From: Anaerosolibacter carboniphilus
GTDB taxonomy: Bacteria > Bacillota > Clostridia > Peptostreptococcales > Thermotaleaceae
NCBI RefSeq assembly: GCF_014205875.1
Contig: NZ_JACHEN010000022.1
Span: 49,524 to 73,523, forward strand
DNA: 24,000 nucleotides
Reading direction: 5' to 3'
Numbering within the stretch: position 1 is the stretch's first letter; every line of letters starts with the position of its first letter. Below, in pieces: positions 2,310 through 24,000 of the stretch. The notes under the pieces were generated by a model. That model had not been told where the DNA came from. It worked only from the letters and a program-made list of their open reading frames with translations, and made no database searches. The position numbers and the translations under genes are program-made.

Positions 2310-4229
2310 GTGGTGGTTAGGGTGTTAAGCAAAAAGCATTACTTAATAATTGACTATCTTAGCGATAAAGATATATACCTAACATCCCAGGAGTTAGCCC
2401 AGAGAATAGGCGTATCCTCACGTACAATTAAGCGATATATTGAAGATATCAATTATGAGATGAAGAATTCCAGAGTAGAGATTGTCTCAATAAAAGGGGT
2501 AGGGTATAAATTAAGCGGACCGCCTAAGTACATTCAAAGTATATTAAAAGAGGCTTTAAAAATCATTAAGGGCTTGGAATCAGATGATTCTATGGAAAGC
2601 AGAGTTGAAAATGCCATATGCTTATTGATCAACAATGACTATTTGAGTGCCGATGAACTGGCAGATCGATTGAATCTAAGCACATCCAGCGTTCATAAGA
2701 TGACATCTCAAATAAAAGAATGCCTCGATAAGTACAATCTAAAGTTAGTTTCCAAACCCTATCGAGGTACATGTATTGAAGGGGATGAGTTAAATATTCG
2801 ATCCTTGATTTTAGATTATAGCATTAAATACGATGATAACAATAGCATTCGAGTTGGCCTTTCCAACATTACAAATAAAGATATTGTCACAGCGGAAGAA
2901 ACGGTGGCAACCTACTTGAAGAATAGAAATATTATTGTTGCAGATAAGGATTTTAATAATCTTTTATCAAAAATACTGGTATCTATGTCTAGGACGAAAA
3001 AGAAGAAGTCAATAGAAAATCTATTCTTAACAAGCAGCTACACGCTGCACAATTATTTGGTGATTCATAACATAATGACCGAACTACAGGAAAGTTTGTG
3101 CATCCCATTTGATGAGAAGGAATTTAGATATGTGGCGCTTTACTCTGGATTTATGATCTATAACTATACGGAAAAGAATATTCAGCCTGATGAAGTGATG
3201 GATGACAATATTTATCATTTTATCCATGAACTGCTGGAAGAAATAAAGATTATTACGGGCAACGATTTTGAAAAGGATTTGAAGTTCATGGATGCCTTTT
3301 CTATTCATATAAAAATAGCGATAAACAGAGCGAAAACAGAAGTGCATATTAAAAACCCATTATTGCAGCAGATTAAGTCCCATTATCCAGTAGAGATGAA
3401 CTTTGCTATGTTCACGGCAAAGAAAATGAATGATCGATTTAACGTAAAGTTGGATGAGGATGAAATCGGGTTTATTGCAATGCACTTTAGTGCAGCTCAG
3501 GAAAGAATAAATACTCATCATATCAAAAAGATATGTATTTTATGCCATTATGGCATTGGTACCGCCCAATTATTTGCTGAGAGGATAAAAAGATGTATAA
3601 AGAATGTGGAGATCGTTGGCATATATCCAGTAAGGTATGCAGATATGGCGTTGACCCAAAATGTCAACTATATCATTTCCACCGTAAATGTTGAAAATTT
3701 AAAGGGCAATATCCCAGTCATTATTGTTGAAAATATGTTATCCGATGAGTCCATTAAAAAAATAGATGAAACCCTATCTGTAGCCATAAAAGAACGAGAA
3801 ATCCTCTATGATATGTTTCATGAGAACGCCTTTTATTGTGTTGAAGCCAACGCAAAGGAAGAAATAATTGCCGAGATAGGCAAAAAAATGACACAAGTTG
3901 GATTAATTGATGAGGGTGTGGTGGCATCTGTTTTAGATAGAGAGAAGATATCAGCTACAGATATAGGTCATATGGTAGCCATACCCCATTCGCCAATCAA
4001 TGGGATACATAAATCTGTGATAGGGGTAGCTGTATTGGATAAACCAATTCTTTGGGATAAATACGAAGTGCAAGTAGTCTTTATGATATGTTTTAATCTG
4101 GCAGAGCGAAAAAATCTTCAAATCTTTAAATATATGTATAACTTGATAGAAGATGCTGATTTAGTAAAATCCATCATAAAGTGTAAGAGCTTTCAAAGTT
4201 TTATGCGCATCATTCAAGACGGTATTTAA
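2310..4229 (+). CDS. PRD-domain transcriptional activator of the MtlR/LicR/ManR type (2 N-terminal HTH, 2 PRD, EIIB-like and EIIA-like domains)
   Basis: N-terminal HTH (LTSQELAQRIGVSSRTIKRYIEDIN) and a second wHTH (LSADELADRLNLSTSSVHK). There are central PRD-like regions, an EIIB-like KICILCHYGIGTAQLF and a C-terminal EIIA-like GHMVAIPHSP. The start is uncertain: GTG 2310 or GTG 2322. Confidence 0.8.
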   Translation: MVVRVLSKKHYLIIDYLSDKDIYLTSQELAQRIGVSSRTIKRYIEDINYEMKNSRVEIVSIKGVGYKLSGPPKYIQSILKEALKIIKGLESDDSMESRVENAICLLINNDYLSADELADRLNLSTSSVHKMTSQIKECLDKYNLKLVSKPYRGTCIEGDELNIRSLILDYSIKYDDNNSIRVGLSNITNKDIVTAEETVATYLKNRNIIVADKDFNNLLSKILVSMSRTKKKKSIENLFLTSSYTLHNYLVIHNIMTELQESLCIPFDEKEFRYVALYSGFMIYNYTEKNIQPDEVMDDNIYHFIHELLEEIKIITGNDFEKDLKFMDAFSIHIKIAINRAKTEVHIKNPLLQQIKSHYPVEMNFAMFTAKKMNDRFNVKLDEDEIGFIAMHFSAAQERINTHHIKKICILCHYGIGTAQLFAERIKRCIKNVEIVGIYPVRYADMALTQNVNYIISTVNVENLKGNIPVIIVENMLSDESIKKIDETLSVAIKEREILYDMFHENAFYCVEANAKEEIIAEIGKKMTQVGLIDEGVVASVLDREKISATDIGHMVAIPHSPINGIHKSVIGVAVLDKPILWDKYEVQVVFMICFNLAERKNLQIFKYMYNLIEDADLVKSIIKCKSFQSFMRIIQDGI

Positions 4230-4266
4230 ACAGCTTTTAATATATTATCGATAAGGAGAAATACAT

Positions 4267-4743
4267 ATGGATATGGTTACTTCGATATTTGAAAGAAATT
4301 ATATACAAATAAATGTTGACATGGTGAATAAGGAGCAAGTGTTGCGATATATAGCAAAGCTAGCTGAGAAAGCCGGCGTATCTTATGATTCGGAGCAGAC
4401 CTATGAAAGTATGTTAAAAAGAGAAAATGAGTTTTCAACAGGCTTTGGGGATGGTTTCGCTATACCCCATACAAAATGCGCCAGTATTAAGAAACCAGCT
4501 GTATTTATATTAAAACTGCGTTCTTCTGTTGATTGGAAGGCAATCGATGAAAGACCTGTATCCATTATCATCGGGCTACTGACTCCCAATGAAAATAATG
4601 GCGCTATTCATCTGAAACTGCTGGCAAGCTTATCGAGAAAATTGATGGATGAGGACTTCAAAAGAAAGTTTATACTTTCTTTTGATGAAGAGGAATTGTT
4701 TCATATGGTTACAGAGGCTCTCGTAGCTTTTGAAAACGAATAA
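4267..4743 (+). CDS. PTS EIIA component (fructose/mannitol EIIA-2 family)
   Basis: 158 aa with RBS AGGAG. The motif GFGDGFAIPHTK contains the phosphorylatable His typical of PTS_EIIA_2. Confidence 0.85.
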   Translation: MDMVTSIFERNYIQINVDMVNKEQVLRYIAKLAEKAGVSYDSEQTYESMLKRENEFSTGFGDGFAIPHTKCASIKKPAVFILKLRSSVDWKAIDERPVSIIIGLLTPNENNGAIHLKLLASLSRKLMDEDFKRKFILSFDEEELFHMVTEALVAFENE

Positions 4744-4763
4744 AAAGTAAAGGGGGAATGAAA

Positions 4764-5075
4764 ATGAGTAAGAAATTAGTAGCACTATGCGCATGCCCTA
4801 TGGGATTGGCTCATACGTTCATGGCAGCTCAAGCCATAAGCAAAGCTGCAAGTGAGCTGGGTTATGAGGCAAAGGTAGAAACCCAGGGAGCCGATGGGAC
4901 CCAAAATGAGCTAACTGTTAAGGAGATAAGAGAAGCCGATCTTATCATTCACGCCATAGCGATTACACCAATGGATGTTGAAAGATTTGATAACGTTGAA
5001 GTTTATGAAATTACACTTCAAGAAGCGATCAAAGACGCGAAAGGCGTGATTCAAAGAATTGAAGCAGAGAAATAA
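4764..5075 (+). CDS. PTS EIIB component, fructose-specific type
   Basis: Active-site motif LVALCACPMGLAHTFMAA matches the ACPTGIAHT-type Cys loop of fructose EIIB. The ORF track starts at 4758, but ATG 4764 has better spacing from GGGGG. Confidence 0.8.
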   Translation: MSKKLVALCACPMGLAHTFMAAQAISKAASELGYEAKVETQGADGTQNELTVKEIREADLIIHAIAITPMDVERFDNVEVYEITLQEAIKDAKGVIQRIEAEK

Positions 5076-5196
5076 AAAAAGACCCCCTCTGAACAGCCAT
5101 TCAAATGAGGAGGTTTAAGCACTACCTATAATAGAATATAACCCATTATGTTCATAAGTACAATATGAGAATCAAAAAATAAAGTGAGGGATTTAT

Positions 5197-6381
5197 ATGA
5201 CAATCAGTGTAAAAAAACCCGGTACTTCTATTTGGAGAGAATTTAGCAAGCATGTTATGACAGGTATTTCTTATATGATTCCTATTCTTATCATGGGAGG
5301 ACTTATAGGTGCATTTTCTCAGATGATTCCCTACGTATTCTTAAAAATTGATGCATCACAATCTATTGTAGATGCCATGAACTCAGGGCAATTTACAGAT
5401 ACATCCTTAAGCATGCTAAAATTGGCATCTGCAATGGAAAGCTTCGGGTTTACTTTGTTTGGTTTTGCAATTCCTATGTTTGCAGCATTTACAGCAAATT
5501 CCATAGGTGGAAAAACGGCCTTAGCAGCAGGTTTTATCGGCGGTTATGTTGCGAATAAGCCCATTGCATTATTGGCTTTAGACGGGGGACAATGGGCAGC
5601 AAAAGCGCCAGTACCTTCAGGGTTCCTTGGTGCAATCATTATTGCTTTTGCTATTGGGTATTTTGTGAAATGGTTGAATAAGAAGATTGTACTGCCTCAC
5701 AATTGGCTGGCTTTCAAAGCTACTTTTCTAGTTCCGTTATTATCCGCTTTGTTTTGTATGATCGCAATGGTATTTATCGTAACACCATTTGGAGGTTGGA
5801 TCAACACCCTTATTCGATCAGGACTACAAGCAGCTGGAAGTGCGGGCCAAATCGCATATTCCATTGCCCTAGCAGCGACTACAGCCTTTGACCTTGGAGG
5901 ACCTGTTAATAAGGCAGCAGGCTTTGTAGCCCTAGGCTTTACAACAGAAAAAGTACTTCCAATAACAGCGAGATGTATCGCCATCGTAACACCATCCTTT
6001 GGTCTTGGATTATCAGCAATCATTGATAAAAGATTAGTTGGCAGAAGGGTATATGACAAACAATTCCATGAGGCTGGGAAAACAGCTATTTTCTTAGGCT
6101 TTATGGGGATTTCGGAAGGTTCAATACCTTTTGCTTTGGAAAGACCAGGTTTTACAATTCCACTTTATGTAGTGGGATCTGTAATCGGTGCTTTAACAGC
6201 TGTTCTATTAGGAGCTGTTCAATGGTTCCCAGAATCTGCAATATGGGCGTGGCCTTTGGTGAGCAATTTAGGTGTGTACATAGCTGGACTCATCGTTGGC
6301 GCATCATTTATTGCCGTCGTGAATGTATTCTATAGAAATAAGTTAATCAAAGACGGTAAATTAGAGGTCATAGAAGATTAA
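5197..6381 (+). CDS. PTS EIIC permease, fructose-like family
   Basis: 394-aa polytopic hydrophobic protein. The motifs GFMGISEGSIPFA and DLGGPVNKAA are typical of fructose-family EIIC. RBS GTGAGGG. Confidence 0.8.
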   Translation: MTISVKKPGTSIWREFSKHVMTGISYMIPILIMGGLIGAFSQMIPYVFLKIDASQSIVDAMNSGQFTDTSLSMLKLASAMESFGFTLFGFAIPMFAAFTANSIGGKTALAAGFIGGYVANKPIALLALDGGQWAAKAPVPSGFLGAIIIAFAIGYFVKWLNKKIVLPHNWLAFKATFLVPLLSALFCMIAMVFIVTPFGGWINTLIRSGLQAAGSAGQIAYSIALAATTAFDLGGPVNKAAGFVALGFTTEKVLPITARCIAIVTPSFGLGLSAIIDKRLVGRRVYDKQFHEAGKTAIFLGFMGISEGSIPFALERPGFTIPLYVVGSVIGALTAVLLGAVQWFPESAIWAWPLVSNLGVYIAGLIVGASFIAVVNVFYRNKLIKDGKLEVIED

Positions 6382-10782: not shown

Positions 10783-11421
10783 ATGATGGATTTAAGTGCA
10801 TTAAAGCAAGCTGTTGGAGACCTTGATGAAGGGACCGTGCTAGACATGCTAAACAAATTTGTAGCCACAAATCCTGGTGAAGAAGAAGCACAAAAGGTGG
10901 TCAATGCATGTCAGCAGGGAATGGCAGTTGTAGGGGATTTGTTTGACAAGGGTGAGTATTTTGTAGGGGATCTGATTTTTGCAGGGGAGCTTCTTACCAG
11001 TGCCATTGATGTGTTAAAACCAGTCATTGGATCAGGAAGCACAGAAAAGGCAGGAACCATCGTCCTTGGTACAGTACAAGGAGATTTGCATGACATCGGA
11101 AAGAACATTTTCAAAAGCATGGCAGAAGCAGCTGGTTTCGAGGTTCATGACCTTGGCATTGATGTGTCTGTGGATGCTTTCGTAGAAAAGGTAAAGGAAG
11201 TAAAACCACAAATCGTAGGTATGAGCGGTGTTCTAACCCTAGCCATTGATGCCATGAAAAATACAATCGATGAACTGAAGACTGCAGGTGTAAGGGATGA
11301 TATTAAAATTGTTATCGGTGGAAACCCTGTAACGAAAGAAGCCTGTGAGTTGGTAGGGGCCGATGCCTTCACCACCAATGCAGCAGAAGGTATCAAAATA
11401 TGCCAGGGGTGGGTGTGCTAA
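10783..11421 (+). CDS. Cobalamin(corrinoid)-binding protein, MtaC/MtbC/MttC-like (copy 1)
   Basis: 212 aa with an N-terminal helical cap domain, then the B12-binding motif [11 protein letters not shown] (DxHxxG), MSGVLT and the Rossmann-like ...KIVIGG... segment. RBS AAGGGGGA. Confidence 0.85.
10878..11094 (+). repeat. High-identity duplicated segment shared with corrinoid protein copy 2 (partner 23784-24000)
   Basis: By-eye alignment at an offset of 12906 nt gives about 14 mismatches in 217 nt. The first ~95 nt of the two genes are much more diverged. Confidence 0.8.
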
Positions 11422-14955: not shown

Positions 14956-16527
14956 ATGTCAACAAGGAAACTCTCTTTCCGAGAAGCATTGCTCGATCCG
15001 GAACAAATGTCCGTTACGTGGGAATTGGTTCCAGGCAGGGGTGCACGAGAAGAGGCTCAGGAAAGTGTTGCTCAGATGGCTGAACTGGCTGCTAGGGATT
15101 CTAGAATTAACTCCATCACCCTAACGGATAACCCAAGTGGAAAGCCTGCTATACTGCCCTATCCTTTAGCCCTTGAAGCAAAAGAGCTAGGGATTGAAAC
15201 ACTGATACATTTTACCTGTAAAGATAAAAATAGAAATGACATAGAAAGTGAGCTCCATGCCCTTGCCAGATCAGGCCTTCCAAATCTGCTGGTGATGACT
15301 GGAGATTATACGACGGAGGGGTTCGGAGGTCGGCCCAAACCAGTATTTGACCTTGATGCGGTGCAGGCCTTAAGATTTATTAGAAAGATGAATAATGGAT
15401 TTGAAATACCAGCCCATAAAGGCTCTAAAAAGCTTCAAAATACGGATTTCTTTGCCGGTGCAGTCGTGTCTCCTTTTAAATCAAAGGAAGCTGAATTGAT
15501 GGCGCAATATTATAAAATGCATAAAAAGATTGCAGAGGGTGCCCAGTTTATTGTGACTCAATTGGGATATGACGCAAGAAAGTTTGATGAGCTGAAGCGG
15601 TATATGGATTGGTACAACTTAAAAACGCCTTTGGTAGGCAATATATTTGTACTGTCTTTACCTGTAGCGAAGATGATGAATAAAAACCTTATTCCAGGGT
15701 GTGTCGTTACGGATAAGATGGTTGCAGACTTAGAAGCTGAAAAAGCCAAGGGAAATGTAAAGGAACAACAATTATTAAGATCTGCGAAGCTCTATGCCAT
15801 CTTTAAAGGATTAAAATACAATGGAGTAACCATTGCAGGACATGGAATCGGTTATACCGATGTAAAGCATATAATTGAAAAGGGTGAAGAGCTAAGTGCC
15901 AATTGGCTGGATTATGTAGCGGAATTCGATTATCCTCAAGATAATGGATTCTATTTCTTCGAAAAGGATCCTGTGACGGGTTTAAATACCAACAAGATCG
16001 TGGATAGAAGCACAACTGGTGCTAGAGCTAAGTCTACCATGAAAGATGTCATGTTTAGCATGGTGCATCATCTCGCACTGAGTGAAAAAGCGCCCCTTTA
16101 CCCTATGATCAAAAAAATTGCAAAAAAAATAGATAAATCCTCTATGAAAAAACCGTTTACCAAAATGGAGTACTGGTCAAAAAGCATAATGCTTGAATGC
16201 CGCTTCTGTGGAGATTGTGTCATGCATGAACTTGCCTATACCTGCCCAATGTCTCAGTGCGCGAAGCACCAGAGAAACGGAGCCTGTGGCGGTAGTCGTG
16301 ATGGATGGTGTGAGGTCTATCCTGAAAAGCAGAAATGCATCTATGTAACGATGTACGAAAAGTTTAAAAATGCTGGAAAGGAAGGTACCATGAAAGAAGG
16401 TTACATACCTCCTGTGAACTGGGATTTATATAGGACATCCTCCTGGTTAAACTTCTTCGCTGGAAGAGATTATAATTACAGAAAAGATGTGGAAGAACAA
16501 GAAGAAGCTAAGAGTTATGCCGAATAA
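14956..16527 (+). CDS. metF: Methylenetetrahydrofolate reductase fused to a C-terminal Cys-rich MetV-like domain
   Basis: The N-terminal ~300 aa are MTHFR-like (SVTWELVPGRG, HFTCKD.NRN, LLVMTGDY, FIVTQLGYD). The C-terminal segment CRFCGDCVMHELAYTCPMSQCAKHQRNGACGGSRDGWCEV resembles the MTHFR C-terminal/MetV zinc-ribbon-like domain. Confidence 0.8.
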   Translation: MSTRKLSFREALLDPEQMSVTWELVPGRGAREEAQESVAQMAELAARDSRINSITLTDNPSGKPAILPYPLALEAKELGIETLIHFTCKDKNRNDIESELHALARSGLPNLLVMTGDYTTEGFGGRPKPVFDLDAVQALRFIRKMNNGFEIPAHKGSKKLQNTDFFAGAVVSPFKSKEAELMAQYYKMHKKIAEGAQFIVTQLGYDARKFDELKRYMDWYNLKTPLVGNIFVLSLPVAKMMNKNLIPGCVVTDKMVADLEAEKAKGNVKEQQLLRSAKLYAIFKGLKYNGVTIAGHGIGYTDVKHIIEKGEELSANWLDYVAEFDYPQDNGFYFFEKDPVTGLNTNKIVDRSTTGARAKSTMKDVMFSMVHHLALSEKAPLYPMIKKIAKKIDKSSMKKPFTKMEYWSKSIMLECRFCGDCVMHELAYTCPMSQCAKHQRNGACGGSRDGWCEVYPEKQKCIYVTMYEKFKNAGKEGTMKEGYIPPVNWDLYRTSSWLNFFAGRDYNYRKDVEEQEEAKSYAE

Positions 16528-16593: not shown

Positions 16594-17433
16594 TTATTTT
16601 TTGAATACAGATGATGAATTCATTGTATTGGTAGGAAAAATCTCAGCATTCTCCAATGCACTATAATGCAAATAGCCTCCGATATGGAGGATCGTATCAC
16701 CAAGTTCAGGATCGATTGTCATGCCGCCCATGCATGGGAAGCTATGCCATGCTTTGGCTACTACTTTTTTTGCTTCTTCCCCTAATTGGGCACCTATGAG
16801 GTGTTTCGCAACATTATACCCATTTCCACAGGGGGCAGACTGTATTACTTCAGCTTTTACGATAATATTTTCCGAATTTACGTAGAGGCGAAACTTGGGC
16901 TTTCCAATTCTAAAGGTATCCATAAATTGATTTAGAATTTCAAATTTGCCTTTTGTCATACTACAAAAAGGTTTTGGAAAATCGTATGCGAGCCCATACT
17001 TTTCACATTCATCGATCGCTTTCTCCCGAACCCATCTGGATACCCAATCGGCACCTTCGCAGGGAACTAGGAGAGCTTTCCCATTACTTTTAGCAATAAT
17101 TTTAGGCAGCTCAATCAAAATATCCTCATGAATACCAAGACATACAAATACATCACTCTCTTTAAATGCTTTGGGAAGGTACGCAAGAGGATCATCAAGG
17201 TAAATGGGATATAAATCAGGCAGACCGATCATTTCTTCAATAAAATTGGAAAAATCCAATTGGTATGCCCCCCTGCACCAATGGCATTTTTTCCCGCAAA
17301 GATTACATGCAAGCTTTGAATTTTGCATGTGAGGAATAAATTTAATATTGGCAAACCTTGTATCAGTCTTCATTTGGAATATATTTTGAGGCAGCATATG
17401 GCTTTTCTGAGAATAGACGATTGTGATTTTCAT
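16594..17433 (-). CDS. Cys-rich hypothetical protein, possibly COG1810/DUF166-like (assignment tentative)
   Basis: 279-aa ORF. Conserved-looking Cys contexts: CNLCGKKCHWC, LVPCEGADW, FPKPFCS, SAPCGNGY, HSFPCMGG. I cannot confirm the family without a profile search. Confidence 0.5.
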   Translation of the reverse strand: MKITIVYSQKSHMLPQNIFQMKTDTRFANIKFIPHMQNSKLACNLCGKKCHWCRGAYQLDFSNFIEEMIGLPDLYPIYLDDPLAYLPKAFKESDVFVCLGIHEDILIELPKIIAKSNGKALLVPCEGADWVSRWVREKAIDECEKYGLAYDFPKPFCSMTKGKFEILNQFMDTFRIGKPKFRLYVNSENIIVKAEVIQSAPCGNGYNVAKHLIGAQLGEEAKKVVAKAWHSFPCMGGMTIDPELGDTILHIGGYLHYSALENAEIFPTNTMNSSSVFKK

Positions 17434-17679
17434 TCTATCAACCTTTCATTTTGATAGGATAGACTGTTTAGCGATTTAAGAAGTTCGATCATTCATACTC
17501 TATGAAAATAGATCTCTATAAATGAATGATTCTAGGTTATTGAAGAAATTCCTTTCAATCGATATGCTTAAGGCATTTAATATTTTGAAGTTTAAAATGT
17601 ATACTCTGAATTGAAACAGGCATCCCAAAAAGATAAAATGAAACTAACAAAAAAACAATTAGAAGAAGGGGGATGCAGT

Positions 17680-18447
17680 ATGGGTTATAAAATAGCGGTG
17701 GCAGGAAAAGGTGGAACAGGGAAAACAAGCTTGACAGGACTTTTGATTGATTATCTAGTAAAAAAAGGCGAGGAGCCGATTCTTGCTGTGGATGCAGATG
17801 CTAACGCCAATCTAAACGAAGTGCTGGGGGAAGAACTGGAGGTAACCATTGGTGAAATAAAGGAAGAAATCAATAAGGCTGAAGCGTCGGGCAGTGGATT
17901 TCCAGGAGGGATGACAAAGGCGGACTACATGAAACTTCGACTAAATACTGCGGTTATAGAAGGAAATGGCTATGATATGCTGGTAATGGGTAGAACCCAA
18001 GGTGAGGGTTGTTACTGCTATGTAAATGGGTTGCTAAAAAGCCAATTAGATATTTTAACAAAGAACTATAAATATTTTATCATAGACAATGAAGCAGGGA
18101 TGGAGCATCTAAGCCGGGGGACTGTAAGAGATATCAATACCCTGCTGTTGATCAGTGATTGTTCTACCAGAGGAATTCAAGCAGCAGGAAGGATTAGGAA
18201 ATTAATTGACGAATTAAAACTAAAGATACCACAAGTATATCTTATTGTAAATCGAGCACCACAGGGTGAATTAAATGAAGGAATAAAAGCAGAAATAGAA
18301 AAGCAAGGATTAGAACTAATCGGGGTTGTACCAATGGATCCCATGATCTATGAATATGATTCGAGTGGGAAACCATTGGTGAAGTTACCCGAAGATGCTG
18401 TATCCAGACAGGCAATAAGAGAAATCATTGCAAAATTAGGTTTATAA
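17680..18447 (+). CDS. CooC/AcsF-type P-loop ATPase (Ni-insertion accessory protein family)
   Basis: Deviant Walker A AGKGGTGKTS immediately after MGYKI, a CxC metal motif GEGCYCYVNG, and DNEAGMEHLSRG. The ORF-track start 17611 has no RBS; ATG 17680 follows AAGGGGGA. Confidence 0.8.
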   Translation: MGYKIAVAGKGGTGKTSLTGLLIDYLVKKGEEPILAVDADANANLNEVLGEELEVTIGEIKEEINKAEASGSGFPGGMTKADYMKLRLNTAVIEGNGYDMLVMGRTQGEGCYCYVNGLLKSQLDILTKNYKYFIIDNEAGMEHLSRGTVRDINTLLLISDCSTRGIQAAGRIRKLIDELKLKIPQVYLIVNRAPQGELNEGIKAEIEKQGLELIGVVPMDPMIYEYDSSGKPLVKLPEDAVSRQAIREIIAKLGL

Positions 18448-18500: not shown

Positions 18501-20039
18501 TTGAAGGAATTGCAATTACGGATAAGAGAATTGGAGGAAATGTTAGCGGAACAGATACAGCAAAGCAAAGAATTAAGGTTGGATAACCAACGGCTGGCGG
18601 AAGAGAATAAAGATTTAAGATTCAAAGTGAACCTAATGGATGATATGCTGGACAATATGTATGAAGGCGTCCGTGCTGTTGATTCAGAGGGAAGAGTCAT
18701 TATTTATTCAAAGGCTAACGAAAAATATGATGTATGGAAAAAAGAAGAGGTCATCGGGAAGCATGAAAATGACCTATGGAATCCTCCCATAGGCTTCACC
18801 TTTAACAAACAGCAAATCATCAGATTAAAAAAACCCATAAAAAATGTAAAAATGATTGGCAGTTCAAAGGCTGGGAAACAATTTCATATCATAGCAGGTT
18901 TTTATCCATACTTTGAAGATGGTGAATGTAAAGCCTTCTATTATACGGGGAGAGATATTACCACATTGGATTCATTTATCATGCAAACCTATGAAATTCA
19001 GCGGAACATGACGAAAAAGAACAATGAGAAGAAACGCATGAATGGCTGTAGGTTTACCCTAAATGATATCATAGGCACCAGTGCAGCGATTACGAGCTGT
19101 AAGGATAAAGCGAGAAGGTTTTCGAATTATAATGCCAACATACTCATTTACGGGGAGACGGGAACCGGAAAAGAAATGTTTGCCCAAGGTATTCACAATG
19201 AAAGCTTATACTCCCATGAACCTTTCATTGCATTAAACTGCTCAGCAGTACCTGAATCCCTTATTGAAAGCATATTGTTTGGTACTGTAAAAGGGGCATT
19301 TACAGGGGCTGAAAATATGTCAGGATTATTTGAACAGGTAGGGAAGGGGACTCTTTTTCTAGATGAAATCAATTCCATGCCTTTGGCCATGCAAGCAAAA
19401 CTTCTTCGGGTACTTCAAGAGAAAAAGATTAGAAGGATCGGAGGTGTTAAAGATATCGATGTGGAATGCTGCGTGATTAGTGCAACCAACATGGATCCTA
19501 AGGAAGCAGTGAAAAAATCCATCTTAAGAGAGGATTTCTATTATAGAATATCCACAGTATTGTTGACAATACCACCCCTAAGAGAAAGAAAGGAAGACAT
19601 TGCTCTACTTATTCAGCATTTTATAAAGGAATTAAATAAAAGATTTTCAAAGCATATAAAGAGTATAGATCCAGATGTACTGTCTTCCTTGATGGAGTAT
19701 CACTGGCCTGGAAATGTACGAGAGCTTCTAAACACATTGGAATATGCAGTTATTCTTTGTGAAGACAATCAGACGGTCTTAACCTATGAGCTTTTTCCTA
19801 ATTATATTTATTATAAAAAGAATAGACAGTGTGATTTTGGAGAGGTCAGCATTGGACAGGATAGTTTCATTGAATACAGCAATACGGAGGATTTAAACAC
19901 CCTATTGGATAATTACGAAAAAAATATTATTGTATCCGTCATCAATAAGTCAAGCGGGAACATTTCTACAGCAGCGAAGAAACTAGGTATTGATCGGAAA
20001 TCATTGTATAGAAAGATTGAAAAATATAAGTTGAAATAA
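18501..20039 (+). CDS. Sigma-54-dependent transcriptional activator (bEBP): coiled-coil + PAS sensor, AAA+ domain, Fis-type HTH
   Basis: Walker A GETGTGKE, the sigma-54-contact loop GAFTGA (..VKGAFTGAE..), Walker B LFLDEI, WPGNVREL, and the C-terminal HTH ISTAAKKLGIDRKSLYRKIEKY. The N-terminus is a heptad-like helix followed by a PAS-like region. TTG start after AAGGAG. Confidence 0.9.
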   Translation: MKELQLRIRELEEMLAEQIQQSKELRLDNQRLAEENKDLRFKVNLMDDMLDNMYEGVRAVDSEGRVIIYSKANEKYDVWKKEEVIGKHENDLWNPPIGFTFNKQQIIRLKKPIKNVKMIGSSKAGKQFHIIAGFYPYFEDGECKAFYYTGRDITTLDSFIMQTYEIQRNMTKKNNEKKRMNGCRFTLNDIIGTSAAITSCKDKARRFSNYNANILIYGETGTGKEMFAQGIHNESLYSHEPFIALNCSAVPESLIESILFGTVKGAFTGAENMSGLFEQVGKGTLFLDEINSMPLAMQAKLLRVLQEKKIRRIGGVKDIDVECCVISATNMDPKEAVKKSILREDFYYRISTVLLTIPPLRERKEDIALLIQHFIKELNKRFSKHIKSIDPDVLSSLMEYHWPGNVRELLNTLEYAVILCEDNQTVLTYELFPNYIYYKKNRQCDFGEVSIGQDSFIEYSNTEDLNTLLDNYEKNIIVSVINKSSGNISTAAKKLGIDRKSLYRKIEKYKLK

Positions 20040-20045
20040 TAGGGA

Positions 20046-20070
20046 TGTGTCAGCATGACACATGTGTAAT
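20046..20070. promoter_or_regulatory. Upstream activator sequence (UAS) copy 1
   Basis: TGTGTCAGCATGACACATGTGTAAT. TGTGTCA/TGACACA form a palindrome, overlapping the palindrome CACATGTG. It starts 190 bp upstream of the -24 element at 20236, and the same motif occurs at 21761 and 23405. Confidence 0.65.
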
Positions 20071-20235: not shown

Positions 20236-20251
20236 TGGCATAAATATTGCT
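20236..20251 (+). promoter_or_regulatory. Sigma-54 (-24/-12) promoter 1
   Basis: TGGCAT-AAATA-TTGCT matches TGGCAC-N5-TTGCW, ~115 nt upstream of ATG 20366. Confidence 0.75.
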
Positions 20252-20365: not shown

Positions 20366-21733
20366 ATGTCGGATGTAAAGAAACTTCAACAAGAGAGAAA
20401 GCAGTTGTTTGAGGATTTATTTGACGGAAAAATACCAAAAAGGGTGCCCATTCGTGCCAACCTGCCTTTGGAGTTTAGTATTCAGTATGCAGGGCTGCCT
20501 TTGGCTGAAACCCAATGGACATTAGATGGTGTGGAAGAGGCCTTAGACAAAGCGTGTCAAATGTCAAAGTCAGACTATTACCCTTCGGGATTTTCAAGAT
20601 ATCCTGCCCATCTTCAAATACTGGGAGCAAAGGGATTTGTCATGGGTTCCAACGGATTCATTCAGCATCCAGAAATCATCGGTATGGAAGTAGGTGAGTA
20701 TGATGAATTCATTAAAAATCCATATGACTGTATTATGGAAAAAATACTTCCACGACTCTATCCAGAATTGAATACAGATCCGACAACACGTTCCATCGTA
20801 TTTGCAAAAGCTTTTAAAGCATTCTTTGATTATATAGAGGCATATGGAAAAATAGATGCAAAATTAATTGAAAAATATGGATTTCATGTGATTCCTAGAG
20901 AATCCTTCAGTGTAGTAACTGCTCCCTTTGATTTTGTGGCGGATTTCTTAAGAAGCTTCAAGGGAATTGCAATGGATGTAAAAAGATGTCCTGAAAAAAT
21001 ACAAGAGGCATGTGAGGCCATGCTGCCGATTCAAATCAAGAGAGGTATACCGCCTGTACCTTCAAAGTATGGTCATACTTTTATTCCGTTACATATGGGC
21101 AGTTATTTACGAAACAGTGATTTCGAAAAGCTGTATTGGCCCACATTCAGTAAAATGGTTCATGCATTGGCAGACGCAGGACAGCCTTGTCTGATATTCT
21201 GTGAACATGATTGGATGAGATATTTGGATTATCTCTATGAGCTCCCTGAAAATACAAGGCTCTATTTTGAGTTTGGCGATCCAAAGCTTGCAAAAGAAAA
21301 ACTTGGCAAGAAGCATATTATTTCTGGCTTCTATCCTTTGACGTATCTACAGTCAGCTACCAAGCAGCAGTGTATTGACAAGGCAAAAGAGCTTATTGAC
21401 ATTTTAGCTCCTGGTGGGAAATATTTCTTTGAATTTGATAAGAGCCCTGTAAGCTTGGACAGTGTAAATGTAGAAAATTATATGGCAGTACTTCAGTATG
21501 TGGCTGAAAATGCAAAATATGATAACCCAGGAGAAGCGGCAGCATCAGAGGATAAGTCTGCCAATAAACCTAAAACGATTGAAATACCTGAGTTTAAATC
21601 TAATTACTATAAAGCGTGGGAAGAATACAAGGTAGGACATCCTGAAATCGGGCCAAAGATAGAACCAATTATGGCTTCAAAATTACAAAGTTACGAAGAA
21701 ATGATATTTAGAATGATTTTCATGCTAATATAG
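20366..21733 (+). CDS. URO-D/MtaA-superfamily-like corrinoid-dependent methyltransferase, paralog 1, with a C-terminal linker and ~44-aa tail domain
   Basis: Start MSDVKK... after AAAGGGG; the track start 20330 has no RBS. The core is ~60% identical by eye to paralog 2. The ...ILAPGGKYFFEFD... region near the core C-terminus recalls the GPGGG region of URO-D-family methyltransferases. Adjacent corrinoid-protein genes support the role. The family call was not verified by search. Confidence 0.6.
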   Translation: MSDVKKLQQERKQLFEDLFDGKIPKRVPIRANLPLEFSIQYAGLPLAETQWTLDGVEEALDKACQMSKSDYYPSGFSRYPAHLQILGAKGFVMGSNGFIQHPEIIGMEVGEYDEFIKNPYDCIMEKILPRLYPELNTDPTTRSIVFAKAFKAFFDYIEAYGKIDAKLIEKYGFHVIPRESFSVVTAPFDFVADFLRSFKGIAMDVKRCPEKIQEACEAMLPIQIKRGIPPVPSKYGHTFIPLHMGSYLRNSDFEKLYWPTFSKMVHALADAGQPCLIFCEHDWMRYLDYLYELPENTRLYFEFGDPKLAKEKLGKKHIISGFYPLTYLQSATKQQCIDKAKELIDILAPGGKYFFEFDKSPVSLDSVNVENYMAVLQYVAENAKYDNPGEAAASEDKSANKPKTIEIPEFKSNYYKAWEEYKVGHPEIGPKIEPIMASKLQSYEEMIFRMIFMLI

Positions 21734-21760
21734 TGGGGATCATTGGGTGATATTCATTAT

Positions 21761-21794
21761 TGTGAAAATATGACACATGTGTAATTATGTCACA
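21761..21794. promoter_or_regulatory. UAS copy 2
   Basis: TGTGAAAATATGACACATGTGTAAT plus an extra TGTCACA at 21788-21794. It starts 188 bp upstream of the -24 element at 21949. Confidence 0.65.
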
Positions 21795-21826
21795 GTGATC
21801 ATGAAAACATAGTAAACATTTTCTTT

Positions 21827-21870
21827 AGTAAAATAAGGTGTGGTATTTTGCCACGCTTTATTTTACTTTC
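21827..21870 (+). terminator. Rho-independent terminator after methyltransferase paralog 1
   Basis: A 17-bp stem, AGTAAAATAAGGTGTGG / CCACGCTTTATTTTACT (2 G-U pairs), followed by TTC and a T-rich tail. Confidence 0.7.
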
Positions 21871-21948
21871 TAAAATCAATACAGAGCAGGGCGCCATGTA
21901 AACCACGTAATATCAATAGATGAAAAAAATAAACAAATGGGAGATACT

Positions 21949-21964
21949 TGGCATAAGAATTGCT
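21949..21964 (+). promoter_or_regulatory. Sigma-54 (-24/-12) promoter 2
   Basis: TGGCAT-AAGAA-TTGCT, ~70 nt upstream of ATG 22031. Confidence 0.75.
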
Positions 21965-22030
21965 ATTAATTTCTATATAAGTGCGATGTAGGCTGAAGAA
22001 ATAAAAATTTGTCAAGGGTGGGTGAACAAT

Positions 22031-23185
22031 ATGACCGATGTAAAAGCATTACAACAAGAAAGAGTACAGATCTTTACGGATTTATTTGATGGTAAGGTTC
22101 CAAAGAGAGTACCAATCAACTTGCTTTTATCCTTTGAGTTTGCGATTCAGTATGCAGGAAAGGATTTAGCAGAAGCTCAGTGGGATACTTCTACGCTTGA
22201 AGAAGTATTTGATAAAATGTGCAGAGACTTTATTACGGATACGAACCCCGCACTGGCATTTAGATATCCTGTATATTACAAATTGTTAGGGGCTAGGAAT
22301 TTTGTGATGAGCTCCAGTGGTTTTTTACAGCATCCAGAAGTCCATGGGTTTGAAGCTGAAGAATATGATGAGTTTATAGCATCGCCCTATGATTGTATTA
22401 TGGAAAAGATATTGCCAAGGATTTACACAGAATTAAACACAAATCCAGTACAAAGGTCTCTTGTAATGGCAAAGGCTTTTAAGGCATTTTACGATGAAAT
22501 GATCAATGGAGGAATGATTGTTGAAAAACTGAATGATAGATATGGTTTTTCTCCTATAGGAGGCTTTCAAGGAATGTGTGAAGCTCCCTTTGATTTTATG
22601 TCAGATCAATTGAGGGGATTTAAGAATATTACGGGAGATATCAGAAGGATTCCTGATAAGGTAGAAGCAGCTTGTGAAGCAGTTACACCTTTGATGATTA
22701 AAACAGGAATGCCTATAAATCCTTCAAAGTACAGTGCTACTTTCATTCCTCTACATATGGCGCCTTTTATTCGGGATAAAGACTTTGAAAGATTCTATTG
22801 GCCAACCTTCAAGAAAGTAGTAGATGAATTAGCGGCTGTAGGGCAGCCATCCTATCTCTTTGTTGAACATGACTGGATGCGTTACCTTGATTATCTGTAT
22901 GAACTGCCTGAGAATACCAGAATGATGTTTGAGTATGGAGATCCAAAGCTTGTGAAAGAAAAGTTAGGGAAAAAACATATACTAACTGGATTCTATCCAA
23001 TTTCTTTATTGAAGGCAGGTACCAAACAACAATGTATTGATAAAGCGAAGGAGCTTATTGATATCCTTGCACCTGGTGGAAAGTATATGTTCAATTTTGA
23101 TAAGAATATTATTACTGCAGATAGTGTTAATATTGAGAACTTACAAGCGGTATTATCCTATGTGGCTGAAAATGCCAATTATTAA
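22031..23185 (+). CDS. URO-D/MtaA-superfamily-like corrinoid-dependent methyltransferase, paralog 2 (core only)
   Basis: Start MTDVKALQQER... at ATG 22031; the track lists GTG 22022. Blocks identical to paralog 1 include EHDWMRYLDYLYELPENTR, GDPKL.KEKLGKKHI and TKQQCIDKAKELIDILAPGGKY. It ends ...AENANY-TAA. Confidence 0.6.
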   Translation: MTDVKALQQERVQIFTDLFDGKVPKRVPINLLLSFEFAIQYAGKDLAEAQWDTSTLEEVFDKMCRDFITDTNPALAFRYPVYYKLLGARNFVMSSSGFLQHPEVHGFEAEEYDEFIASPYDCIMEKILPRIYTELNTNPVQRSLVMAKAFKAFYDEMINGGMIVEKLNDRYGFSPIGGFQGMCEAPFDFMSDQLRGFKNITGDIRRIPDKVEAACEAVTPLMIKTGMPINPSKYSATFIPLHMAPFIRDKDFERFYWPTFKKVVDELAAVGQPSYLFVEHDWMRYLDYLYELPENTRMMFEYGDPKLVKEKLGKKHILTGFYPISLLKAGTKQQCIDKAKELIDILAPGGKYMFNFDKNIITADSVNIENLQAVLSYVAENANY

Positions 23186-23199
23186 AGGAGGGAATATAG

Positions 23200-23343
23200 A
23201 TGGAAACAAAGTATTATAAAACTTGGGATGAATATATAAAGGAACATCCAGAAATTGATGAGAAACTTATACCTGTTATAGCACCTAAAATACAGAGTTA
23301 TGAAGAAATGATGTTTAGTTTCGTTATGACGCTGCTCATGTAA
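23200..23343 (+). CDS. 47-aa small protein homologous to the C-terminal tail of paralog 1 (not in the ORF track)
   Basis: ATG 23200 lies 8 nt after AAAGGAGGG. The product METKYYKTWDEYIKEHPEIDEKLIPVIAPKIQSYEEMMFSFVMTLLM* aligns with SNYYKAWEEYKVGHPEIGPKIEPIMASKLQSYEEMIFRMIFMLI* (21599-21733), about 22 identities by eye. Confidence 0.7.
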   Translation: METKYYKTWDEYIKEHPEIDEKLIPVIAPKIQSYEEMMFSFVMTLLM

Positions 23344-23404: not shown

Positions 23405-23428
23405 TGTGACGTATTGTCACATGTGTAA
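23405..23428. promoter_or_regulatory. UAS copy 3
   Basis: TGTGACGTATTGTCACATGTGTAA(T). TGTGAC..GTCACA form a palindrome. It starts 190 bp upstream of the -24 element at 23595. Confidence 0.65.
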
Positions 23429-23474
23429 TAATGATACAAAAGGGTCAGAACTTAGAAAAGATCTCTATCGTACT

Positions 23475-23508
23475 AAAAAAGCTGTGAAGTCGTGCCACAG
23501 CTTTTTTT
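23475..23508 (+). terminator. Rho-independent terminator after paralog 2 and the small ORF
   Basis: AAAAAAGCTGTG-(9-nt loop)-CACAGCTTTTTTT. Confidence 0.8.
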
Positions 23509-23594: not shown

Positions 23595-23610
23595 TGGCAC
23601 AGATATTGCT
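23595..23610 (+). promoter_or_regulatory. Sigma-54 (-24/-12) promoter 3
   Basis: TGGCAC-AGATA-TTGCT, ~80 nt upstream of ATG 23689. Confidence 0.8.
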
Positions 23611-23688: not shown

Positions 23689-24000
23689 ATGATTGATGTA
23701 AAAGTACTATCACAGATGGTGGGGGATCTGGATGAAGGTGCCGTATTAGACATGCTGAATGAATTTGTGTCTACAAATCCCAGTGAAGAAGAGGCACAAA
23801 AGGTAGTCAATGCATGTCAGCAGGGAATGGCCATTGTAGGGGATTTGTTTGACAAGGGCGAGTATTTTGTAGGGGATCTGATCTTTGCAGGGGAACTTCT
23901 TACCAGCGCTATTGATGTGTTAAAGCCAGTCATTGGGTCAGGAAGCACAGAAAAGGCTGGAACCATCGTCCTTGGTACAGTACAAGGAGATTTACATGAT
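23689..24000 (+). CDS. Cobalamin(corrinoid)-binding protein, copy 2 (5' part; runs off the window)
   Basis: [69 protein letters not shown]...GDLHD is collinear with copy 1. RBS AAAGGGGG. It is open to the window end. Confidence 0.85.
   Translation, partial: MIDVKVLSQMVGDLDEGAVLDMLNEFVSTNPSEEEAQKVVNACQQGMAIVGDLFDKGEYFVGDLIFAGELLTSAIDVLKPVIGSGSTEKAGTIVLGTVQGDLHD

Follow-up and report, generated by a model that had tools for sequence, protein, structure and literature searches.

In anaerobes, methoxy groups derived from lignin, and probably other methyl donors, enter the Wood–Ljungdahl pathway through corrinoid-dependent demethylases, which are also under development for the biocatalysis of reversible methylation. 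[quoted passage not shown] The MT I enzymes of three-component O-demethylase or methyl-transfer systems include MtvB from Moorella thermoacetica, OdmB and VdmB from Acetobacterium dehalogenans, and MtoB from Methermicoccus shengliensis and Archaeoglobus fulgidus. In the literature on O-demethylase MT I, with the original papers on the characterised enzymes covered in part, we found no description of a small subunit, of a fourth, 47-residue component or of a conserved C-terminal module. The locus reported here lies in a 24,000-nucleotide stretch of DNA (the window) and carries two neighbouring MT I-like paralogs. It resembles the O-demethylase systems in several respects: the paralogs have the URO-D superfamily barrel, related loci have corrinoid protein, pterin-binding MT II and MFS transporter genes adjacent, and the organisms concerned are acetogens, sulfate reducers and syntrophs.

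Paralog 1 is a fused form and paralog 2 a short form (Table 1), and their cores display 62% identity over 386 columns. The core alignment agrees exactly with an earlier note on this DNA, which had placed a linker in paralog 1 where paralog 2 has its stop codon and ribosome-binding site: the end of paralog 2 (...AENANY-TAA, stop codon at 23183–23185) is the exact start point of the paralog 1 linker. A URO-D-like (β/α)8 barrel is recognised in both proteins, by Pfam for paralog 2 and, for paralog 1, by an AF2 model (pLDDT 95, pTM 0.92, core above 90) whose best Foldseek matches in the PDB are human UROD (E 3e-10) and the Methanosarcina mazei methyltransferase entry 4ay7. At the sequence level, residues 107–385 of paralog 1 are matched by CdmB (PDB 9rui), an MT I that has been characterised experimentally (E 1.4e-20). 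From homology and gene context, we infer that the window paralogs act as methyltransferase I, and analogy suggests methoxylated aromatics as their substrate (PMC13564433, PMC8630106).

The ATG of the mini-ORF, at 23200, is located 14 nt past the stop codon of paralog 2 and 8 nt past an AGGAGG, and the overlap of the Shine–Dalgarno site AAAGGAGGG with that stop codon suggests translational coupling. The mini-protein aligns without gaps with residues 410–455 of paralog 1 (22/46 identical, i.e. 48%, and 32/46 positive; BLASTP, E 2e-14), a similarity that on these figures is far beyond chance and that agrees with the "about half identical" of the earlier note. All the positions given there for the paralog 2 stop codon, the ribosome-binding site and the 47-codon ORF hold as well. 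The same note called the ORF unlisted; this is true of the ORF track available to its author but not of GenBank, where the ORF is annotated as hypothetical protein HNQ80_003448 of Anaerosolibacter carboniphilus. The peptide had also been described as no known domain, and indeed no Pfam or NCBIfam model matched with E ≤ 0.01; when the limit was relaxed to E 10, the best Pfam model was DUF5647 (0.033, well below its cutoff), and a profile search of the PDB returned no significant match (best E 0.28).

Paralog 2 and the mini-ORF are together bracketed by a sigma-54 promoter and a terminator hairpin, i.e. laid out for co-transcription. Three matches to the −24/−12 promoter pattern were found versus 0.12 expected, and three to the palindrome-containing motif GACACATGTGTAAT versus 0.04 expected. 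The first copy of this motif, some 180 nt upstream of a −24/−12 promoter, is a putative binding site for the activator, whose gene matches many further sigma-54 EBP models and which is the likely regulator of the three downstream units. The window contains two corrinoid protein genes, one directly downstream of the mini-ORF unit and a second at 10783–11421, the products of which are 89% identical; the former is the presumed methyl acceptor of both methyltransferases. No MT II gene is present inside the window.

Table 1. Coordinates of the features of the window (source: Anaerosolibacter carboniphilus)
Feature	Position	Strand	Detail
Sigma-54-dependent transcriptional activator gene (PrdR/AtoC-like)	18501–20039	+	NCBIfam TF_PrdR, E 1e-122, below curated cutoff
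Palindrome-containing motif GACACATGTGTAAT, copy 1 of 3	20057–20070	+	
Sigma-54-type −24/−12 promoter of paralog 1	20236–20251	+	TGGCAT-N5-TTGCT
Paralog 1, whole gene	20366–21733	+	455 aa
Paralog 1 core, URO-D-fold methyltransferase-I-like barrel	20366–21520	+	Residues 1–385 (to Y385)
Paralog 1 linker DNPGEAAASEDKSANKPKTIEIPEFK	21521–21598	+	26 aa, polar, poorly conserved
Paralog 1 tail module SNYYKAWEEYKVGHPEIGPKIEPIMASKLQSYEEMIFRMIFMLI (21599–21730) plus stop codon	21599–21733	+	Cis form of the mini-protein
Motif GACACATGTGTAAT, copy 2	21772–21785	+	
Terminator-like hairpin then U-rich tract, 3′ of paralog 1	21827–21867	+	−23.4 kcal/mol, z −9.2
Sigma-54-type promoter of the paralog 2 plus mini-ORF unit	21949–21964	+	
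Paralog 2, short-form URO-D-type methyltransferase-I-like protein	22031–23185	+	384 aa; Pfam URO-D (PF01208), E 7e-12, above gathering score
Shine–Dalgarno site AAAGGAGGG overlapping the paralog 2 stop codon	23184–23192	+	Read from sequence
Mini-ORF, product METKYYKTWDEYIKEHPEIDEKLIPVIAPKIQSYEEMMFSFVMTLLM	23200–23343	+	47 codons; trans form of the tail module
Motif copy 3, letters GTCACATGTGTAAT	23416–23429	+	
Terminator-like hairpin plus U-run, end of the paralog 2/mini transcription unit	23475–23507	+	−13.6 kcal/mol, z −2.5
Sigma-54-type promoter of the downstream corrinoid-protein gene	23595–23610	+	
Corrinoid (B12-binding) protein gene, truncated by the window end	23689–24000	+	Pfam B12-binding_2, E 2e-14

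The distribution of the module was surveyed among 114 related URO-D-type methyltransferase core ORFs, found in 86 loci plus the window. The module is split from the core in 67 of them, fused in 38, cut by contig ends in two and absent from seven, the latter being a distant class (131–241 bits versus more than 440 bits for clade members). It is present in each of the 105 clade members whose downstream sequence is long enough for an assessment. The fusion/fission pair proposed in the earlier note, both states of which occur within the window itself, is therefore clade-wide and not peculiar to the Anaerosolibacter carboniphilus genome. An exhaustive profile search identified about 39 clusters of free-standing minis at 50% identity (44–54 aa), in line with the recurrence that the note had asked about; besides these it retrieved MT-fused proteins or fragments and no other architecture. 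A further protein search with a 68-sequence tail profile yielded at least 12 matches and added little. The tail of paralog 1 scores 85 bits against the tail HMM.

In the 38 fused forms, the linker is 17–32 residues long and poorly conserved; among 92 fused proteins, it measures 24–27 aa in 75 and is never shorter than 17, and its majority-residue frequency is 0.1–0.3 versus 0.6–0.9 at key tail positions. The 67 split minis have 46–51 codons, starting with ATG (52), GTG (12) or TTG (3), and 58 of them are preceded by a Shine–Dalgarno motif in the same stop/Shine–Dalgarno/start layout as in the window, the stop-to-start gap being mostly 11–27 nt. All three reading frames relative to the core gene occur, which implies independent initiation. 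The recurrent gene order is Pterin_bind MT II, corrinoid protein, URO-D, mini and MFS transporter, the first four being found together at six loci (L001–L006). Divergent minis likewise adjoin URO-D genes, and genomes with several paralogs have one mini per split paralog (L007, L011, L019). Note that a Tepidanaerobacter acetatoxydans locus contains three clade members; MT I proteins of this organism, which grows on syringate, are reported in PMC13564433 to be 40–44% identical to MtoB, a figure that applies to the genes named there.

The mini-ORFs are under purifying selection, with a median dN/dS of 0.19 and a value below 1 for all 424 usable pairs. Together with the intact ORFs, the start codon and Shine–Dalgarno statistics and the number of clusters, this is what is found of functional genes; conservation in other genomes and purifying selection were two of the checks proposed in the earlier note, and both came out in favour of the small ORFs. 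Tail and core diverge together (Mantel r 0.70, reached by 0/999 permutations), and in the median case core and tail share the same nearest neighbour. The fused or split state is clade-structured, with two fused clades, paralog 2 falling in the split clade; Fitch parsimony on an NJ tree without bootstrap support requires a minimum of three changes and tentatively gives 'split' at the clade root, the outgroup being devoid of the module. Tail–core covariation was measured on 150 unique paired sequences (effective number about 76) as the APC-corrected mutual information of 384 core columns with 51 tail columns; it gave noise and located no docking site: the result is unusable because the top pairs are scattered over the barrel and driven by the fused-versus-split gap columns.

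In the AF2 model of paralog 1, the tail is placed with a pLDDT of 94–96, versus 75–79 for the linker. It is mostly an extended arm with one short helix (418–423) and one long helix of 22 residues (433–454), so that as modelled it is not expected to be an autonomous globule. Modelled alone, the mini-protein reaches a lower pLDDT than the fused tail (84.7 for the best model, 70–76 for the others, pTM 0.50) and has no globular shape. Hardly any variation is seen at the aromatic cluster Y-Y-x-x-W-x-x-Y or at the Glu of Q-x-Y-E-E. The variable stripe of the long helix is narrow, being restricted to columns 37, 44 and 48, as expected of a deeply buried helix, and the helix looks buried. After the conserved Y-E-E comes a hydrophobic run of 10–11 residues, which R or K interrupts in many fused homologs.

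The interpretation that we favour, with a probability of about 80%, is that the ORF at 23200–23343 is a genuine gene for a 47-residue protein and that this protein is a separately encoded C-terminal 'arm plus helix' module, an obligate MT I subunit acting in cis or in trans. On our best reading, the module is the hallmark of a single large clade of URO-D-fold, corrinoid-dependent methyltransferase-I-like enzymes, relatives of MtoB, MtvB and CdmB. In paralog 1, the module is tethered to the barrel via the 26-residue, poorly conserved linker; in the case of paralog 2, whose gene ends at the core boundary, its translation would begin at a separate start codon 14 nt further on, with the Shine–Dalgarno site overlapping the stop codon favouring a coupled, roughly equimolar synthesis. 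The confident placement of the fused tail, the co-divergence of tail and core and the presence of one mini per core lead us to predict that the peptide is an obligate structural subunit bound to its own barrel, a contact that, in view of the single-chain nature of the model, could be intramolecular or across a homodimer. The N-terminal aromatic arm (S-K-Y-Y-x-x-W-E-E-Y) would run on the barrel surface and the C-terminal helix (Q-x-Y-E-E-x-x-F-x-F-I-x-x-L-L) would lie, largely buried, in a hydrophobic groove. Note that the barrel fold itself needs no module, since tail-less relatives with same-length cores exist (CdmB and a class 32% identical to paralog 2).

More speculatively, the module might complete the substrate pocket or cap the channel, or else form a docking surface for the corrinoid protein. 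That the aromatic cluster and the Glu of Q-x-Y-E-E are part of the substrate pocket or of a leaving-group activation site, or that they gate corrinoid access, is a tentative proposal that we consider rather unlikely. If it were true, the short-form enzymes would be obligate two-gene heteromers in which a 47-residue subunit helps to set specificity or catalysis, and with the module the corrinoid-dependent demethylase systems of anaerobes would have a fourth component, so far undescribed.

Among the roles proposed in the earlier note, a docking helix and a corrinoid-protein adaptor are both plausible. As an alternative to the subunit interpretation, the module could be mainly an adaptor, i.e. 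a platform that recruits the cap or Rossmann domain of the corrinoid protein, MT II or the activase to MT I and has no structural or catalytic part in the barrel. This proposal overlaps with the subunit interpretation and differs from it only in the primary role of the module. The corrinoid protein is anchored to MT I at two points in an AlphaFold 3 model of the CdmB system (PMC13222342), the module always occurs in loci for corrinoid-dependent methyl transfer with corrinoid protein genes adjacent, and the acidic and aromatic residues that are strongly conserved on the surface (E-E-Y, Q-x-Y-E-E) would suit a protein–protein interface. However, AF2 positions the tail confidently without any partner, the long helix, for the most part hydrophobic and with conservation on more than one of its faces, looks buried rather than exposed, some split loci (L089 and L091) have no corrinoid protein nearby, and MT I enzymes that have no tail, CdmB for example, are nevertheless functional with their corrinoid protein. 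We therefore regard a primarily adaptor role as doubtful, with odds well short of even.

The earlier note had also considered a membrane-proximal tail, and one may wonder whether the hydrophobic C-terminus is a membrane anchor or an in-plane membrane helix tethering the methyltransferase near a substrate-importing MFS transporter, the gene of which is often found 3′ of the mini-ORF. The hydrophobic end of the peptide (MMFSFVMTLLM, about 10–11 residues) is nevertheless only about half a transmembrane helix, short of the 18–20 residues or so needed to span the membrane; many fused forms have R or K within it (FRMIFMLI, FKMISRLM), and in some it is even shorter (…EEMFFMLF). Moreover, it forms part of the 22-residue helix that AF2 predicts with a pLDDT of 94–96 in a soluble single-chain model, and the characterised MT I of the superfamily are soluble enzymes (PMC8630106, PMC13222342), so that we rejected this explanation as very improbable. 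The least probable explanation is that the split state is not real and reflects a recent frameshift or nonsense pseudogene, a sequencing error, or recoding by readthrough or frameshifting to give a fused protein: although the gap in the window is just 14 nt and at some loci the mini reads in frame 0 with respect to the core gene, it was rejected given that 67 independent loci from many genera have intact ORFs in the split state, that all three relative frames are used with stop codons between the genes, that no complete mini lacks a start codon of its own and most have a Shine–Dalgarno site, that the linker of about 25 aa seen in fused forms is absent and not merely interrupted, and that the mini of locus L087 lies upstream of its core gene, beyond the reach of any recoding model.

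If a large MT I clade does need this 45-residue module, a separate gene in 67 of the 105 members sampled, then annotations that drop ORFs of fewer than 50 codons miss a subunit, a short-form MT I expressed alone in a heterologous host may be inactive or insoluble, and the peptide should be included in structure and specificity studies. The natural cis/trans pairs, including the two neighbouring paralogs of the window, constitute a ready-made complementation system. The family deserves a domain or family entry, Pfam and NCBIfam having none.

How does the module compare with what is known? Among solved structures, sequence comparison detects a relationship only to CdmB, the chloromethane-specific MT I of Acetobacterium dehalogenans, a homodimeric URO-D-like TIM barrel whose partners are a separate corrinoid protein and an MT II (PMC13222342). 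Unlike the window paralogs with their module, CdmB ends at the core boundary (…GKY, residue 429) and has no tail; it contains about 43 extra residues in the N-terminal extension region, and it acts on haloalkanes, not on methoxylated aromatics (PMC13222342). The idea that the tail replaces these extra N-terminal residues is weakened by the tail-less sister class, whose core length is close to that of paralog 2. As for MtoB1 and MtoB2, their reported masses of 48 and 47 kDa fall between the short (384 aa) and fused (455 aa) forms. As in Rosetta-stone pairs, the module is fused in some lineages and free in others, where the partner gene is adjacent, and the two co-diverge. In contrast to the usual pairs of this kind, it is unusually small (about 45 aa) and not an autonomous domain, and its state is clade-structured rather than sporadic, with both states present as neighbouring paralogs in one genome. 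The module is thus best read as an undescribed small part of a known three-component system, present throughout the clade.

The 47-residue product of the small open reading frame that follows paralog 2 (hereafter the mini) is homologous to the C-terminal tail of paralog 1. The two align without gaps over residues 410–455 of paralog 1, with 22/46 identical and 32/46 similar residues (BLASTP, E = 2e-14), and the cores of the two paralogs, i.e. their URO-D barrels, are 62% identical, the linker of paralog 1 starting at the exact point where paralog 2 ends. The layout read by the earlier note, with a stop codon closing paralog 2, then a ribosome-binding site and the 47-codon frame, agrees in its coordinates with the sequence, and the resemblance to the paralog 1 tail that it had seen by eye is recovered by BLASTP. 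Its description of the frame as unlisted holds only for the ORF track that it used: GenBank carries the mini-ORF of Anaerosolibacter carboniphilus as a hypothetical protein, HNQ80_003448 (paralog 1 being HNQ80_003446).

Features of the window in and around the methyltransferase paralog pair
Feature	Position	Remarks
Corrinoid-protein gene, upstream copy	10783-11421	precedes the fhs/folD/fchA/metF methyl-branch cluster
MetF-like methylene-THF reductase	14956-16527	DUF5981 C-terminal domain
DUF166 protein	16594-17433	minus strand
CooC/MinD-like P-loop ATPase	17611-18447	
Sigma-54 activator gene	18501-20039	
Palindrome-containing motif, three copies	20057-20070, 21772-21785, 23416-23429	G[AT]CACATGTGTAAT (GACACATGTGTAAT)
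Sigma-54-type -24/-12 promoter	20236-20251	before paralog 1; TGGCAY-N5-TTGCT
Paralog 1	20366-21733	455 aa; runs on beyond Tyr385, the counterpart of the paralog 2 end
Linker start of paralog 1	21518-21535	Y-D-N-P-G-E
Paralog 1 linker	21521-21598	26 residues, polar
Paralog 1 tail	21599-21730	44 residues
Hairpin then U-run	21827-21867	3' of paralog 1; -23.4 kcal/mol
Sigma-54-type -24/-12 promoter	21949-21964	before paralog 2 and mini; TGGCAY-N5-TTGCT
Paralog 2	22031-23185	384 aa; C-terminus …AENANY-TAA
AAAGGAGGG	23184-23192	overlaps the paralog 2 stop codon
Mini-ORF	23200-23343	ATG at 23200; 47 codons
Hairpin then U-run	23475-23507	3' of mini; -13.6 kcal/mol
Sigma-54-type -24/-12 promoter	23595-23610	before the corrinoid-protein gene; TGGCAY-N5-TTGCT
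Corrinoid-protein gene, downstream copy	23689-24000	3' of the mini-ORF, after the methyltransferase paralogs; cut by the window end

Bounded by the promoter before paralog 2 and the hairpin and U-run after the mini, the paralog 2 unit thus has two cistrons, of which the mini-ORF is the last. The three sigma-54-type promoters (0.12 expected by chance) each lie about 165–180 nt 3' of one copy of a palindrome-containing motif, itself present three times where 0.04 copies are expected. From the sequence, the sigma-54 activator is likely to regulate all three motif/promoter units, which would then form a small dedicated regulon. The CooC/MinD-like gene stands between the Wood–Ljungdahl genes and this regulator.

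By fold, sequence and context, the large proteins belong to the UroD-superfamily group of methyltransferases I. The Pfam URO-D profile matches paralog 2 at E = 7e-12, paralog 1 by itself remaining under threshold, and the AF2 model of paralog 1 (120 homologs; pLDDT 95.2, pTM 0.92) finds, as its top PDB matches, uroporphyrinogen decarboxylases together with an entry for a methyltransferase of Methanosarcina mazei. The only solved structure with a sequence relationship is that of CdmB (E = 1.4e-20), which stops at the core boundary and is devoid of the tail. CdmB, which in Acetobacterium dehalogenans acts as a methyltransferase I specific for chloromethane, belongs, together with MtvB, OdmB, VdmB and MtoB, to the UroD superfamily of corrinoid-dependent methyltransferases I, and it forms a homodimeric TIM barrel on which the corrinoid protein docks, in the published model, at two points (PMC13222342). 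The window carries Wood–Ljungdahl methyl-branch genes and two copies of a corrinoid-protein gene, 89% identical over the 103 visible residues. On this homology and gene context, the label 'methyltransferase I' is well supported for both paralogs.

The mini recurs in other genomes. A word-indexed search returned three more 47-aa proteins, 74–83% identical to it, each encoded by an ORF beginning 14–16 nt past a 382–385 aa URO-D gene; the operon order is methyl-corrinoid:THF methyltransferase (Pterin_bind), corrinoid protein, URO-D protein and mini, often followed by an MFS transporter. When 1.84 billion 50%-identity representatives were searched exhaustively with a profile, 49 matches had E ≤ 0.001, 39 of which are free-standing proteins of 44–54 aa with the pattern S-K-Y-Y-x-T-W-E-E-Y-x-x-x-H-P-E-I…Q-x-Y-E-E-x-M-F-x-F-I-M-x-L-L; the remainder are mostly methyltransferase-fused proteins or gene fragments, with two repeat proteins that are unrelated. 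By length, the homologs of paralog 1 divide into two classes, of about 455 aa (97–100% of the query) and about 384 aa (85% of the query), and the motif is present in the long-class C-termini inspected.

For a census, one genome per GTDB species was scanned (313 relatives), and all stop-to-stop fragments of the best 80 of 313 loci, of six metagenome loci and of the window were scored against two HMMs, one for the core and one for the tail. Among 114 core ORFs, 67 are split, with a separate small ORF adjoining the core gene, and 38 are fused to the tail through a linker; two are cut by a contig end and not judgeable. The seven ORFs with no tail all belong to a distant class, which scores 131–241 bits to the core HMM, as against over 440 bits for clade members, and whose full-length members are 32–33% identical to paralog 2. 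The module is thus present in 105/105 judgeable clade genes: the fusion/fission pair proposed from the window alone gains support and is generalised, and the recurrence in other genomes that it called for is found. The 67 split minis start with ATG (52), GTG (12) or TTG (3), a Shine–Dalgarno motif precedes 58 of them (several others have G-rich runs), and the gap from the upstream stop is 11–27 nt in all but four loci. Their length is 46–51 aa, apart from an N-masked locus (L040), one contig-end cut and one ambiguous choice of start codon. With respect to the core gene, the minis occupy all three frames, and genomes with several split paralogs (loci L007, L011 and L019) have one mini per core. 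We therefore reject a pseudogene, given the intact start codons, the Shine–Dalgarno motifs and the use of all three frames, as well as recoding, given the frames, the minis' own start codons and a locus in which the mini lies 5' of the core.

In that locus (L087 2616-5315, metagenome ROBE23 scaffold_32), a fused-type methyltransferase, whose own tail is divergent, precedes a 47-aa mini (4001-4144); this mini sits 10 nt 5' of a short-form core (4155-5315), with nothing tail-like 3' of the core. The arrangement is a gene-order permutation, with the mini ahead of its presumed partner. The same scaffold carries, at 1227-1358, a 43-aa ORF (MEERNIVTLSELEKMALEDELWEEDAEKRKMIISALHNMLCGV) 18 nt past a URO-D gene whose relationship is distant (core HMM score 110 bits), which may encode an analogous small partner, unrelated in sequence, of another URO-D subfamily. 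Tail-less sister genes with the core length of paralog 2 and the same 32–33% identity to it lie directly 5' of split methyltransferase and mini genes, within the same operons, in five loci (L033 412-1866, L051 1759-2988, L056 2139-3401, L058 2238-3512 and L060 1722-2993); they are candidates for a second methyltransferase I or a URO-D-type methyltransferase II. In a Eubacterium limosum MAG and in E. callanderi (L073 and L074, 2633-5359), a split methyltransferase and its 46-aa mini (3831-3971) are directly followed by a fused-type methyltransferase, the window's layout in reverse order, so that both states also stand side by side in genetically tractable acetogens.

The mini is under purifying selection, a check proposed at the outset: across 46 distinct 47-codon minis, median dN/dS (Nei–Gojobori) is 0.19, the ratio stays under 1 in all 424 usable pairs, and between several close pairs the only differences are synonymous. 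Core and tail distances are correlated (Mantel r = 0.70; 0/999 permutations as high), and the closest neighbour by core is, at the median, the closest by tail as well. These results show the small ORF to be a gene that is conserved, under selection and equipped with proper translation signals; the module is universal in the clade and co-inherited with the core. The linker of the fused proteins is weakly conserved except for its Y-x-N-A/P-G-E start, directly past the core boundary; its length is 24–27 aa in 75/92 fused proteins, with a minimum of 17. Such a narrow range of lengths would be expected if the linker had to bridge a constant distance between a docking site and the point where the last barrel helix ends. 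On a neighbor-joining core tree rooted with the tail-less class, the fused genes fall into two clades, one of 30 and one of 4 members, and at least three changes of state are required. The linker of the smaller clade differs and its tails are akin to the minis of split neighbours, suggesting an independent fusion.

In the paralog 1 model, the tail (pLDDT 94–96) follows a less well-defined linker (pLDDT 75–79) and consists largely of extended chain, plus a short helix (418–423) and a long one (433–454). Predicted alone from 41 aligned minis, the mini keeps this topology (helices 9–15 and 21–46), with a pLDDT of 84.7 in the best model, 70–76 in the other four and a pTM of 0.50; these modest values indicate that it is predicted not to be an autonomous globular domain. 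Conservation peaks at profile columns S7, Y9, Y10, W13, Y16, P21, Q36, Y38, E39, F43, F45 and L49, and the long helix varies only along a narrow stripe (columns 37, 44 and 48), a pattern compatible with its deep burial. We infer, with good support, that the mini is a small subunit that binds to its cognate barrel, and that translation coupled to that of paralog 2 would supply it in roughly equimolar amounts. A covariation scan for the docking site gave only noise. Bound to the barrel, the module could possibly cap the pocket or a hydrophobic channel, contribute to the dimer interface or offer a docking platform to the corrinoid protein. Membrane anchoring is rejected, and the membrane-proximal tail once suggested is unlikely: the hydrophobic C-terminal end is only 10–11 residues long, and in fused forms R or K frequently occurs within it.

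As anticipated, the 45-residue module is not a recognised domain, with no match in Pfam, NCBIfam or PDB, and it is unmentioned in the literature searched. Note that MtoB1 and MtoB2 are reported at 48 and 47 kDa, in between the short and fused forms. We would describe a clade of corrinoid methyltransferases I with a detachable, probable small subunit, so far undescribed in the literature searched. The practical weight of the finding lies in the annotation, expression and structural study of these enzymes; current concepts are not overturned unless the peptide proves catalytic or specificity-determining. The system of the window would act in the manner of the three-component demethylases MtvABC, OdmABD and MtoABC, and of CdmBCA.
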